Virus record (IMG/VR): IMGVR_UViG_2703719349_000001
Coordinates: 1-9,106 of that record
DNA: 9,106 nucleotides
Strand: one strand, 5' to 3'
Source of the DNA: a virus
Lineage: Duplodnaviria; Heunggongvirae; Uroviricota; Caudoviricetes
A program made the translations under genes and the position numbers. The notes beneath the pieces are model-generated. The model saw only the letters and a list, made by a program, of their open reading frames with translations, was not told the origin of the DNA and searched no databases. The stretch's first letter is position 1. Each line of letters starts with the position of its first letter. Below are positions 1,331 through 2,190 of this stretch, piece by piece.

Positions 1331-2190
1331 TTGTTCTCCAAAATATTGATTCCTCAATTTCGGGACGTTACACTGTTCAGGCACCTTATAAAGCGGGTGC
1401 CGGGCGTGGAAACCCGGAATTCACCAAAGCGCACAACCGCGCTTTTGCGGTTTTTTTGTGTCATGAGCAGCATTACGCCCAAATTATGGTGGGGCGTGCA
1501 GGGCCAACTTCGGTTGGGCCGGGTTCTTTGGTGACCGGTATTTCCACCCCTGTACGTCTCACCACCAATAAGGTCGTGGAAAGCCTTGGTGGTGAGTTAT
1601 TAAAAATCACCAAAGAGGCTGCCATCATGGCTACGATCCCAACCCTCACTCAACCTGAAATTGCCATCGTTGATGGTCAGGCTGTTACTTCATCCCTGGC
1701 TGTTGCCAACTTCTTCTCCAAACGTCATGACGATGTACTGAAAAAGATCCGCATTTTGGATTGTTCTCCAGAGTTTTGTGCCCGCAATTTTGCGGAGACA
1801 TCAATTTTGGTACGCCAGCCCAACGGCGGTACTCGCAAACTTCCTTGCTATCAAATAACCCGCGACGGCTTTGCGTTTCTTGCTATGGGCTTCACTGGTA
1901 AACGTGCAGCCAGGTTCAAAGAGGCATACATCAACGCCTTTAACCTGATGGAGAAGAGTTTATCAGGTGCCGATGCGTCTGATATGTCAGCTGTCGCACG
2001 AAACGCCAGAGGCGTATACCTGCATTTGCGTGAAATCCATCAAATCTGGACAAGCCAGCTTTATCCAATGCTTAAGGCTGTTGAATCTCCGCTGGCCAGC
2101 AAACTGTACGACCGTGTTGGTGATGCTGTTTTTGGTGCTGCACTTGTTGATTCCAGGCTGAATGGTTCTGACAAGGAGGTGCGTCCATGA
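1327..2190 (+). CDS. rha: Rha-family phage regulatory protein with unrecognised ~100-aa N-terminal module; strong alternative internal start at 1627
   Basis: ORF open from ATG 1327 (ATGA overlap with upstream stop, weak SD). C-terminal ~185 aa match the Rha pattern (SLAVANFFSKRHDDVLKKI...EFCARNF...YQITRDGFAFLAMGFTGKRAARFKEAYINAFN). Internal in-frame ATG 1627 has a good SD (AAAGAGG 1612-1618). Which start is used is unresolved. Confidence 0.75.
   Translation: MIVLQNIDSSISGRYTVQAPYKAGAGRGNPEFTKAHNRAFAVFLCHEQHYAQIMVGRAGPTSVGPGSLVTGISTPVRLTTNKVVESLGGELLKITKEAAIMATIPTLTQPEIAIVDGQAVTSSLAVANFFSKRHDDVLKKIRILDCSPEFCARNFAETSILVRQPNGGTRKLPCYQITRDGFAFLAMGFTGKRAARFKEAYINAFNLMEKSLSGADASDMSAVARNARGVYLHLREIHQIWTSQLYPMLKAVESPLASKLYDRVGDAVFGAALVDSRLNGSDKEVRP
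1361..1404 (+). repeat. Ultra-conserved 44-nt block (copy 1) inside the N-terminal module of Rha paralog 1; contains GGCACC/GGTGCC hairpin
   Basis: CGGGACGTTACACTGTTCAGGCACCTTATAAAGCGGGTGCCGGG is 43/44 identical to 2221-2264, while flanking sequence is diverged. Confidence 0.85.

Follow-up and report, generated by a model that had tools for sequence, protein, structure and literature searches.

A duplicated 20-base block as the probable start site of two phage Rha genes, each behind a C4-family antisense RNA

The 20-base block GAGGCTGCCATCATGGCTAC, which occurs twice in a 9,106-nucleotide virus sequence (Caudoviricetes; IMG/VR record IMGVR_UViG_2703719349_000001, positions 1 to 9,106; hereafter the window), very probably supplies the ribosome binding site and true start codon for two genes of phage Rha regulators, each gene lying just 3' of an antisense-RNA switch. 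A search of the window with up to 3 mismatches allowed found the block only at 1615-1634 and 2472-2491, and the number of matches to the 20-mer expected from 200 shuffles was 0. The first-pass annotation had described an internal GAGG located 8 nt 5' of an in-frame ATG in both copies, and this is present exactly as claimed. Both ATGs share the frame of the long open reading frames (ORFs) at 1327-2190 and 2187-2846, from whose first bases they are separated by 300 nt (1627-1327) and 297 nt (2484-2187), respectively. The two blocks and the genes that they would open are as follows.

1615..1634, plus strand: block copy 1, with the Shine-Dalgarno sequence (SD) GAGG at 1615-1618, a spacer of 8 nt, the ATG at 1627-1629, and codons 2 and 3
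2472..2491, plus strand: block copy 2, with the SD at 2472-2475 and the ATG at 2484-2486
1627..2190, plus strand: Rha-family gene 1 from its predicted C4-controlled start, 187 aa, with a Pfam PF09669 (Phage_pRha) score of 92.2 bits versus a cut-off of 29.9
2484..2846, plus strand: Rha-like gene 2 from its predicted C4-controlled start, 120 aa, with a PF09669 score of 28.4 bits, just under the cut-off of 29.9, so that its Rha membership is borderline

The Phage_pRha domain is complete in the short form of gene 1 (aa 21-110). The block is enclosed by a duplicated stretch of approximately 330 nt with approximately 80% identity, as revealed by alignment of both window copies, and represents the second-longest run of perfect identity within it. 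The longest run (32 nt) covers the putative -10 element, the transcription start, and the 5' hairpin of an IsrK-like RNA. The two tandem cassettes sit in a lambdoid early operon between Bro-N and replication genes. Of 121 unique cassettes in a sample of IMG/VR, 41 start within the exact block, a copy of which was also found in Aeromonas popoffii, and the 1.6 kb around it in the window matches 1757 of 5426 complete Escherichia coli genomes.

Upstream of each ATG, the region of approximately 300 nt that had been taken for the N-terminal module of a protein is instead occupied by a promoter-like region, an IsrK-like small RNA (sRNA), and a C4 antisense RNA, and it is devoid of codon periodicity. 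The elements of cassette 1 are as follows.

1327..1329, plus strand: ATG of the long ORF, sharing an ATGA with the TGA stop that ends the Bro-N gene upstream
1346..1374, plus strand: putative promoter read from the sequence, with a -35 element TTGATT at 1346-1351, a spacer of 17 nt, and a -10 element TACACT at 1369-1374
1381..1457, plus strand: IsrK-like sRNA copy 1 (c4-a1b1/P4 seqA-like), Rfam RF01394, 67.3 bits versus a gathering score of 50
1406-1412 and 1421-1429, plus strand: decoy boxes a1 (GTGGAAA) and b1 (TCACCAAAG), identified by a1/b1 complementarity
1435-1457, plus strand: intrinsic terminator from a terminator scan (site 1435-1452, followed by a T run)
1482..1569, plus strand: C4-family antisense RNA copy 1, Rfam RF01695, 83.6 bits versus a gathering score of 45, full-length match
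1523-1534 and 1541-1547, plus strand: C4 pairing segments, the b' loop GTTCTTTGGTGA and a' TTTCCAC
1576..1582, plus strand: a2 target box GTGGAAA, complementary to a'
1587..1596, plus strand: mimic of the C4 5' arm, TGGTGGTGAG, with the C4 3' arm or the start region as predicted pairing partner
1607..1616, plus strand: b2 target box TCACCAAAGA, able to pair with the b' loop and ending with the GA of the SD

The corresponding elements of cassette 2 are as follows.

2187..2189, plus strand: ATG of the long ORF, overlapping the stop of Rha gene 1 (ATGA), with GGAGG 5' of it in a conserved linker
2206..2234, plus strand: putative promoter, with TTGATT at 2206-2211 and TACACT at 2229-2234, identical to the aligned copy 1
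2241..2317, plus strand: IsrK-like sRNA copy 2, Rfam RF01394, 54.9 bits versus a gathering score of 50
2266-2272 and 2282-2289, plus strand: decoy boxes a1 (TTGGCGT) and b1 (GCATACGG)
2298-2317, plus strand: intrinsic terminator from a terminator scan (site 2298-2311, followed by a T run)
2342..2429, plus strand: C4-family antisense RNA copy 2, Rfam RF01695, 80.7 bits versus 45, full-length match
2383-2394 and 2401-2407, plus strand: C4 pairing segments, the b' loop TTTCCGTATGCG and a' ACGCCAA
2434..2440, plus strand: a2 target box TTGGCGT
2445..2452, plus strand: mimic of the C4 5' arm, GGTGGTGG, pairing with CTGCCATC at 2476-2483 (8 bp, 3 of them G-U)
2465..2473, plus strand: b2 target box GCATACGGA, overlapping the SD at 2472-2475

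Complementarity to C4 extends over 10, 7, 9, and 7 nt for b2, a2, b1, and a1 of cassette 1 and over 9, 7, 8, and 7 nt for those of cassette 2. The a and b boxes are GTGGAAA/TCACCAAAG in cassette 1 and TTGGCGT/GCATACGG in cassette 2, and because these alleles are unlike, each Rha gene would answer to its own C4. Inspection of C4 copy 1 also revealed a tRNA-like 3' end, ACCACCA, at 1561-1567. Transcription is predicted to start near G1381 in cassette 1 and near G2241 in cassette 2. A consensus promoter scan of positions 1250-2600 called nothing, the cassette promoter agreeing with the consensus in just 8 of 12 bases, so that the promoter was assigned solely by positional homology: TTGATT-17-TACACT is spaced from the IsrK 5' hairpin as are the TTGACA-type promoters of relatives, including PisrK of Gifsy-1.

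A C4 DNA pattern that is blind to ORFs retrieved 125 unique cassettes belonging to 32 clusters, with 48 alleles of the b' loop and 29 alleles of a'. In 106 cassettes, b2 matched its own b' over at least 7 nt in 92% of cases versus 3.8% of cross pairs, and a2 matched its own a' over at least 7 nt in 96% versus 9%. The corresponding values were 72% versus 10% for b1 and 88% versus 7% for a1. Across the cassettes, the C4 loop thus covaries with the sequence immediately 5' of the SD. RNAalifold analysis of 26 cluster representatives, both window copies among them, yielded a long closing stem around two hairpins, with 26 pairs, 16 of which are compensatory and changed on both sides. A start codon lies a few nucleotides 3' of b2 in all 32 clusters (modal distance of 9 to 11 nt in the 125 cassettes), which indicates that the internal SD-ATG pointed out in the first-pass annotation is a real and conserved start. 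The genes opened in this way encode Rha, Icd-like, Bro-N, KilA-N-like, and small unrelated proteins, and a set of 53 well-formed genomic cassettes, most of them from Pseudomonas, reproduced the pattern. The P1-like geometry, the loop covariation, and the start after b2 in 32 of 32 clusters argue that ATG 1627 and ATG 2484 are genuine C4-controlled starts.

The mechanism proposed here is drawn from homology and covariation, from which we infer the RNA ends, C4 processing, and repression alike. A weak promoter would be followed by the IsrK-like sRNA with the decoys a1 and b1 and the terminator and then by C4, a2, b2, the SD, and the AUG. Read-through past the IsrK terminator would produce C4. 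In P1, RNase P cleavage sets C4 free. The b' loop and a' segment of C4 would pair with b2 and a2 of the mRNA, and since b2 covers the first two bases of the SD, this pairing would block initiation at AUG 1627 or AUG 2484. The short IsrK-like RNA, carrying the same boxes, could act as its Gifsy-1 counterpart does, by titrating C4 or by opening the leader. In addition, the start region may lie in a local hairpin formed by GGUGGUG and UGCCAUCA, with b2 and the SD displayed in the loop.

In its sequence organization, the window locus is an ordinary member of the known P1 c4/Gifsy-1 IsrK-type system, and its oddity is the open leader frame. In the immI operon of P1 and P7, the c4 antisense RNA controls icd-ant, as relayed in PMC8201110 (Citron & Schuster 1990). 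In P1 (GenBank accession number NC_005856, annotated with a1, b1, c4, a2, b2, and icd), the order is a1, b1, terminator-like hairpin, C4, a2, b2, SD, and ATG; the final GA of b2 belongs to GAGG, and 8 nt separate the SD from the ATG, exactly as in the window. The C4 fold is also alike, with b' in the loop of the second hairpin and a' in the next junction. However, the first controlled gene of P1 is icd, followed by ant, whereas it is a Rha-family regulator in the window, which also has two tandem cassettes with different a/b alleles. Moreover, the leader frame, closed in P1, is open in the window and runs in frame into the gene. The block had been compared with the in-frame ant1/ant2 arrangement of P1; that in-frame pair does exist in P1 but is a separate feature further downstream, and the true analogue of the block is the c4-b2/icd start (NC_005856).

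In Gifsy-1, Rfam isrK is likewise followed by C4, and the ATG of anrP comes directly after b2 and the SD. The regulation of isrK-STnc1160/orf45-anrP has been tested experimentally (Hershko-Shalev et al. 2016, PMC4825925). The short IsrK stops at its own terminator, read-through gives the mRNA, translation of orf45 was seen by western blotting and is required for that of anrP, and the anrP start region is structured and depends on upstream translation (PMC4825925). As in the window, an ORF in the same phase begins at an AUG in the C4 5' arm; the AUG at 1486-1488, in frame with ATG 1627, occupies the position of the orf45 start, and the AUG at 2346-2348 in C4 copy 2 is in frame with ATG 2484. 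However, orf45 ends at the AUGA of anrP (coupling), whereas the phase in the window continues into Rha without a stop, and only one cassette is present in Gifsy-1, its promoter being of the canonical TTGACA type. The c4-a1b1 family (RF03163; Weinberg et al. 2010, PMC2864571) scored below the threshold in the window and above it in Gifsy-1. AnrP was considered as a homologue of the window Rha protein and rejected, since it contains an ORF6N domain and gave a BLASTP E value of 1.9, the resemblance being confined to the leader. In satellite phage P4, where immunity involves the CI RNA with seqA/seqC, Rfam C4 matches the CI RNA region and isrK matches the seqA region, and the overlapping ORF, the old "cI gene product," is a Phage_ASH member like the window leaders. 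The main action of P4 CI is to terminate transcription of the replication operon prematurely (PMC4825925, discussion), and P4 differs from the window in having no Rha gene after CI.

The long ORFs are annotated by the NCBI PGAP, and residues 15-111 of their products match Pfam PF10554 (Phage_ASH) with 57.6 and 59.8 bits versus a cut-off of 26. In work on Stx phages, too, Ash is treated as part of a protein, a domain whose function is unknown (PMC8951638). Only the long ORFs might accordingly be real, with Ash as a true N-terminal protein domain and the Rfam matches incidental, which is extremely unlikely given that the Rfam C4 scores exceed the threshold by 30 to 40 bits and that covariation of base pairs and of the loop with its target is not explicable by protein coding. 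The Ash profile itself matches the old P4 "cI" ORF, which contains an Rfam C4 match. The leader entropies at codon positions 1, 2, and 3 are 0.586, 0.621, and 0.591, without codon periodicity, versus 1.03, 0.90, and 1.26 in the Rha part, so that the amino acid sequence of the leader is apparently not selected and at most the openness of its frame is. In addition, most of the C4 cassettes found elsewhere lack the leader ORF. The protein-domain reading of Ash was rejected on the grounds of missing periodicity, the P4 "cI" overlap, and ORF absence, despite a real Pfam match; judged from the sequences, the Phage_ASH "N-terminal module" is the translation of RNA genes. The PGAP/Pfam label "ash family protein" or Ash-Rha fusion is carried by hundreds of E. 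coli prophage genes. The first 100 or so codons of such Ash calls would be RNA immunity genes, with the regulated start 100 codons further downstream, and loci of Stx and other lambdoid phages in which Ash is treated as a domain (PMC8951638) would be read differently.

The leader frame is nevertheless open in one lineage, the tandem-type cassettes, which comprise 59 unique cassettes grouped by promoter motif and not by ORF. Their leader frame contains 0 stops versus 215 and 275 in the other phases, and within the hypervariable a/b boxes the counts are 0 versus 15 and 9. It is stop free in 59 of 59 cassettes and in frame with the downstream ATG in 57, and the leader ORF begins by ATGA overlap on the upstream stop in 54. 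Over all cassettes, stops are depleted approximately 2-fold (25 versus 49 and 42), the strong effect being confined to the tandem type. The stop-free leader and the ATGA overlap in this lineage indicate that upstream translation, and hence longer products, may also occur.

The first-pass annotation had proposed nested isoforms, a long protein and a short one from AUG 1627 or 2484. The long form would begin at ATG 1327 or 2187, or else at AUG 1486 or 2346. Initiation at ATG 1327 and ATG 2187 would be coupled to translation of the gene before it on read-through transcripts, and ribosomes crossing the leader would unfold the IsrK terminator, C4, and the start hairpin, thereby bypassing C4 control. 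This proposal, which is compatible with the C4-controlled starts, is considered rather unlikely. It agrees with the stop-free, in-frame, ATGA-coupled leader of the tandem-type lineage and with the same-phase orf45 of Gifsy-1, whereas the leader lacks codon periodicity and the ORF houses promoter and intrinsic terminator signals together with an RNA that should be excised, both of which argue against it. ATG 2187 lies in the linker GGAGGTGCGTCCATGATCCGC, as does the start at 3034 of the next downstream ORF, but ATG 1327 is located upstream of the predicted cassette transcription start. P1 also has a closed frame, as do roughly half of the 32 clusters, and the start codons of the genome set fall into the three phases 21, 21, and 11 times, without preference. 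Among the in-frame starts, the internal ATGs have GAGG at 8 nt, ATG 2187 has GGAGG, and ATG 1327 has a weak G-rich stretch. Long alternative-frame ORFs that in some clusters extend the leader phase across Icd-like or small genes were rejected, their translations resembling out-of-frame junk.

A tentative extension, more doubtful than not, is that the tandem-type lambdoid leader is of dual use, in that a selected-open frame fused to the regulator would also carry the promoter, the terminated sRNA, and the antisense RNA, which would give two expression modes. In the lysogen, the cassette promoter alone would fire, and since the cassette transcription start lies 3' of ATG 1327 or 2187, the leader would remain untranslated, IsrK and C4 would be made, and C4 would shut the short Rha start. 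Once transcription of the early operon enters from upstream, coupling to the preceding gene would send ribosomes across the leader and so keep the terminator and C4 from folding and open the start hairpin, giving an N-terminally extended Rha that escapes C4. If so, the downstream replication genes would also be shielded from polarity. With its stop-free frame, the leader is a place where overlap between RNA genes and a translated frame could be put to the test.

The start region itself appears to be structured. The CTGCCATCA part of the block pairs with an upstream GGTGGTG element, and the sequestering hairpin recurs across clusters. In cassette 1, the mimic at 1587-1596 could form 9 bp with the C4 3' arm CTCACCACC at 1558-1566 or 8 bp, 3 of which are G-U, with the start region TGCCATCA at 1620-1627. 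Pairing of at least 7 bp between the start region and the C4 5' arm was found in 14 of 32 clusters versus 1.4% of shuffles, and in just 2.7% of 478 unrelated SD-ATG starts. Stems of at least 7 bp with the local mimic were found in 50% of clusters versus 8.6% of shuffles. The earlier suggestion that GGTGG-type upstream pairing masks the block thereby gains comparative support. The upstream ATGGTGG cited for it is present, at 1486-1492 instead of 1485-1491 (off by one). The start-region hairpin includes three G-U pairs, and its replication in the genome set is weak. Minimum free energy folds of the post-C4 leader are allele specific and unlike between the two cassettes, and the comparative tests were therefore relied on instead.

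The block also contains the near-palindrome GCCAT-C-ATGGC, at 1621-1631 and 2478-2488, for which the first-pass annotation had suggested a role as a binding site. That it serves as a protein-binding operator or as a start-codon hairpin of its own is very unlikely. It is present in both copies, and RNAfold gives a 4-bp hairpin of -4.2 kcal/mol, which is the most that arms leaving a 1-nt loop allow, but the best hairpin over the start codon in the 32 clusters has a mean of 3.9 pairs versus 3.6 in shuffles. Hairpins of at least 5 pairs occur in 37.5% versus 19% of shuffles, much of the excess coming from clusters with the block or a close variant, and the symmetry is partly trivial, CAT and ATG being mutually reverse complementary. 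With stems over the start codon barely exceeding shuffles, conservation of the palindrome as a hairpin or operator is not significant in the 32 clusters, and this candidate was rejected.

The 20/20 identity of the two blocks could also reflect mainly a homology patch, a mosaic junction at which leaders (specificity) and coding modules are exchanged by recombination. This is a possibility of some weight, if on balance the less probable one. The allele pair TTGGCGT/GCATACGGA is joined to five downstream classes, and multiple downstream partners were seen for 12 of 72 allele pairs. The block is common to cassettes of different Rha types, a form with a 1-nt deletion occurs with Icd-like genes, and the conserved ATGA linkers at the gene junctions of the window point to modular exchange as well. 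However, a homology patch accounts for the spread of the block and not for the fixation of that sequence. Distant, unrelated starts keep the SD-spacer-ATG geometry and the GGTGG complementarity with compensatory changes, which argues for functional constraint. The two box sets and the 48 by 29 alleles found among relatives suggest a combinatorial RNA immunity code over Bro-network/Rha regulators in prophage-rich genomes.

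The 20-mer GAGGCTGCCATCATGGCTAC, which carries a Shine-Dalgarno (SD) motif and an ATG, occurs exactly at positions 1615-1634 and 2472-2491. No further copies were found in the window with up to three mismatches allowed, and none were expected by chance. Both copies lie within a ~330-nt duplication of ~80% identity, in which the block is the second-longest run of perfect identity. The exact 20-mer is also found in Aeromonas popoffii. The first-pass annotation had read each block as a possible internal start of a nested short Rha isoform, the long form carrying an additional N-terminal module. 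The block, the SD spacing and the in-frame ATGs were confirmed: GAGG precedes ATG 1627 and ATG 2484 at a distance of 8 nt, and the ATGs share the frame of the long open reading frames (ORFs) 1327-2190 (287 aa) and 2187-2846 (219 aa), respectively. The protein read from ATG 1627 retains the whole Rha domain (aa 21-110). The block is very probably a ribosome-binding site and start codon of the Rha genes under the control of a C4 antisense RNA. The nested-isoform proposal is partly supported: the internal start is real, with a conserved SD-ATG, but the upstream module consists of RNA genes instead of a protein. Rfam identified two RNA families on the plus strand within each supposed module.

RNA genes in the two tandem cassettes
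1381-1457, plus strand, isrK copy 1 (67 bits; gathering score, 50)
2241-2317, plus strand, isrK copy 2 (55 bits; gathering score, 50)
1482-1569, plus strand, C4 antisense RNA copy 1 (84 bits; gathering score, 45)
2342-2429, plus strand, C4 antisense RNA copy 2 (81 bits; gathering score, 45)

The C4 fold has independent support: across 26 representatives, the two window copies among them, pairing is maintained by two-sided changes at 16 of the 26 predicted pairs. Each IsrK-like element is closed by an intrinsic terminator, and a promoter-like element (TTGATT, 1346-1351; TACACT, 1369-1374) lies at the position of the Gifsy-1 promoter PisrK. The ~100 codons of each supposed module match the Pfam family PF10554 (Phage_ASH), and the long ORFs are named "ash family" or "Rha family" proteins by PGAP. 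PF10554 coincides with the IsrK and C4 region at 1369-1660 and 2229-2520 of the window and at 8168-8584 (minus strand) of P4. The profile also matches the old "cI gene product" ORF of P4, which contains an Rfam C4 match, the region of the P4 CI RNA. The family appears to represent conserved RNA genes in translated form rather than a domain of a protein. In practice, the chief consequence is that "Ash" domains and start codons are widely misannotated.

In both cassettes, the loop of C4 hairpin 2 (b') is complementary to box b2 and to box b1 of the IsrK-like part, and the junction 3' of hairpin 2 (a') is complementary to boxes a2 and a1. The boxes differ between the cassettes (GTGGAAA/TCACCAAAG and TTGGCGT/GCATACGG), and b2 overlaps the SD in each.

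Target boxes at the Rha starts
1607-1616, b2 of cassette 1 (TCACCAAAGA), overlapping GAGG 1615-1618, with the ATG at 1627
2465-2473, b2 of cassette 2 (GCATACGGA), overlapping GAGG 2472-2475, with the ATG at 2484

IMG/VR was scanned with a DNA pattern built from C4 structural anchors only, so that the sample was blind to ORFs. In total, 125 unique cassettes in 32 clusters were retrieved. Box matches of at least 7 nt were compared between each cassette's own C4 RNA and cross pairs.

Box matches of at least 7 nt
b2: own cassette, 92%; cross pairs, 3.8%
a2: own cassette, 96%; cross pairs, 9%
b1: own cassette, 72%; cross pairs, 10%
a1: own cassette, 88%; cross pairs, 7%

A start codon follows b2 in all 32 clusters, at a modal distance of 9 to 11 nt, and the genes opened there are unrelated, including two Rha types, Icd-like proteins, Bro-N and KilA-N-like antirepressors, and small basic proteins. 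The internal SD-ATG, on whose conservation in homologs the isoform proposal had been staked, is the most conserved positional feature of the cassettes. The same geometry recurred in a set of bacterial genomes, in 53 well-formed cassettes of which most came from Pseudomonas. The sample contains 48 different b' loops and 29 different a' alleles, in 69 combinations; together with the tandem arrays, this diversity suggests an immunity code in which RNA boxes are used combinatorially. The block also behaves as a mosaic junction, as many as five different downstream N termini being joined to one a/b allele pair. Three tandem cassettes, each with different a/b boxes, are present in some prophages, such as L044 and L002 (E. 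coli O121, NZ_CP119441, 857-3029).

The system belongs with the known P1 immI, P4 CI and Gifsy-1 IsrK systems. The annotated P1 record has the order a1, b1, c4, a2, b2, icd and describes b2 as the site at which C4 binds to repress translation of icd-ant. The GA of GAGG forms the 3' end of the P1 b2 (GTTAGTGA), with the icd ATG 8 nt past the SD, the same layout as in the window. Upstream of Gifsy-1 anrP, Rfam identifies isrK (34316-34240), c4-a1b1 and C4 (34214-34131), and the anrP ATG (34076) lies directly 3' of b2 and GGAGG. In Gifsy-1, short IsrK stops at its own terminator, read-through yields a translationally silent mRNA that is activated by IsrK in trans, a 45-codon ORF (orf45) is translated, and anrP translation requires that of orf45 (Hershko-Shalev et al., PMC4825925). 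Processing of the orf45 region also yields a stable RNA, STnc1160, which is likened to P4 CI, and the C4-family RNA of Gifsy-1 is discussed there only under that name (PMC4825925). When the published coordinates were mapped, the first AUG of orf45 (+107) was that of the C4 5' arm (UUAUGG), and orf45 ended at the AUGA of anrP. The published orf45 (34210-34073, minus strand) opens inside the 5' arm of a C4-family RNA, and helix b-I of that paper (PMC4825925) corresponds to a1 pairing with a'.

AUGs 1486 and 2346 of the window are the counterparts of the orf45 start, in the same phase. Unlike in Gifsy-1, no stop precedes the Rha ATG, so that translation from these AUGs would add 47 or 46 residues. 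Several observations argue against the leader, the stretch 5' of the Rha ATG, being a protein module. Its variability by codon position is flat (0.586/0.621/0.591), whereas the Rha part has the usual third-position excess (1.03/0.90/1.26). The leader frame is interrupted in P1 as well as in roughly half of the clusters, the genome set showed no preferred phase of the start codon relative to the C4 AUG (21/21/11), and the long "ORF" encloses a promoter-like element, a terminator and an RNA that is probably processed.

There is nevertheless evidence that the frame is kept open in the tandem-type lineage. Among 59 unique tandem-type cassettes from the IMG/VR loci, grouped by promoter motif and not by ORF, the leader phase contains 0 stops versus 215 and 275 in the other phases, and 0 versus 15 and 9 inside the hypervariable a/b boxes. 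The leader is in frame with the downstream ATG in 57 of the 59, and in 54 the leader ORF starts at an ATGA that overlaps the stop of the gene before it. We infer that selection favors the passage of ribosomes along the leader and does not act on an Ash protein. Such passage would provide coupling, prevent polarity on the downstream replication genes and, as in Gifsy-1, open the start-region hairpin. Extended forms of Rha might then arise as a by-product, but longer products are less likely than not. The stop-free, translationally coupled leader frame is the main question raised. In 21 of the 59 cassettes, the leader ORF starts at -465 relative to the C4 AUG; the usual linker there lacks a stop, and upstream of it the frame continues for another ~100 codons, as far as a second ATG (context ...GAGAAACTAACGCATGAAC). 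Several enterobacterial clusters have a leader-phase frame without stops across the whole of the small gene downstream (Icd-like or MANRK...), in an alternative frame, reaching +1248 in L013 and L061 and about +444 in L021, L022 and L037. The end of this ORF is at almost the same position in three diverged clusters, and its translations look like junk.

The first-pass annotation had also suggested masking of the start by an upstream ATGGTGG, which is present at 1486-1492, one base from the position assigned, and the idea is supported in modified form. CTGCCATCA in the block is complementary to AUGGUGG of the C4 5' arm and to a copy of this arm between a2 and b2 (GGTGGTGAG, 1588-1596; GGTGGTGG, 2445-2452). 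In the predicted local stem (8 bp, of which 3 are G-U), the spacer and the first base of the AUG would be paired, with b2 and the SD exposed in the loop. Anchored complementarity of at least 7 bp between start region and 5' arm occurs in 14 of the 32 clusters, representing 11 distinct start-region sequences by our count, versus 1.4% of shuffles and 2.7% of 478 unrelated SD-ATG starts from the same loci. A local stem of at least 7 bp is found in 50% of clusters and 8.6% of shuffles, and clearly different sequences form it in different clusters (e.g., GACTAATTC with GAATTAGTC). Replication in the genome set was weaker (at least 6 bp, 68% versus 34%). The proposed GCCAT-C-ATGGC palindrome is not supported: it forms at most 4 bp (-4.2 kcal/mol), and start-codon hairpins are barely enriched across clusters. 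The C4 3' arm (CTCACCACC, 1558-1566) can pair perfectly over 9 bp with the downstream 5'-arm copy GGTGGTGAG, leaving a2 in the loop (2421-2427 and 2445-2452 in cassette 2). Pairing of this kind, which would replace the C4 fold, shows covariation in distant clusters (e.g., ATGGTCAGAC and ATGGCCAGAC in L029) and suggests that the transcript, before processing, acts as a structural switch.

The window corresponds to the early-right region of a lambdoid prophage.

Gene order in the window
506-1330, Bro-N gene
between the Bro-N and DnaC-like genes, the two cassettes, then two small ORFs
4167-5057, DnaC-like gene
5054-6454, DnaB-like gene
6755-7750, DUF968/HNH gene
7769-8149, Q antiterminator
from 8713, DNA methylase

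The same cassettes are found in cultured phages, including mEp460, ST64B, SfV ("orf37: immunity region"), phiP27, cdtI and many Stx phages. About one in three complete E. coli genomes has them, with up to three cassettes per array. An identical 21-mer, GGAGGTGCGTCCATGATCCGC, lies at 2174-2194 and 3021-3041, with a variant at 2830-2846, and ATGA stop/start overlaps occur at 1327, 2187, 2843 and 3034. This conserved linker (SD plus ATGA overlap) joins successive genes, whose upstream proteins end in ..EVRP, and resembles a modular boundary that would serve the shuffling of cassettes as well as translational coupling. Just past the Q antiterminator gene, a strong terminator-like hairpin (AAACCCGCCGCGAGCGGGTTTTTTT, 8216-8243) occupies the position expected of a late-leader terminator such as lambda tR', and a second T-run lies at 8560-8575, past a small ORF (8365-8562).
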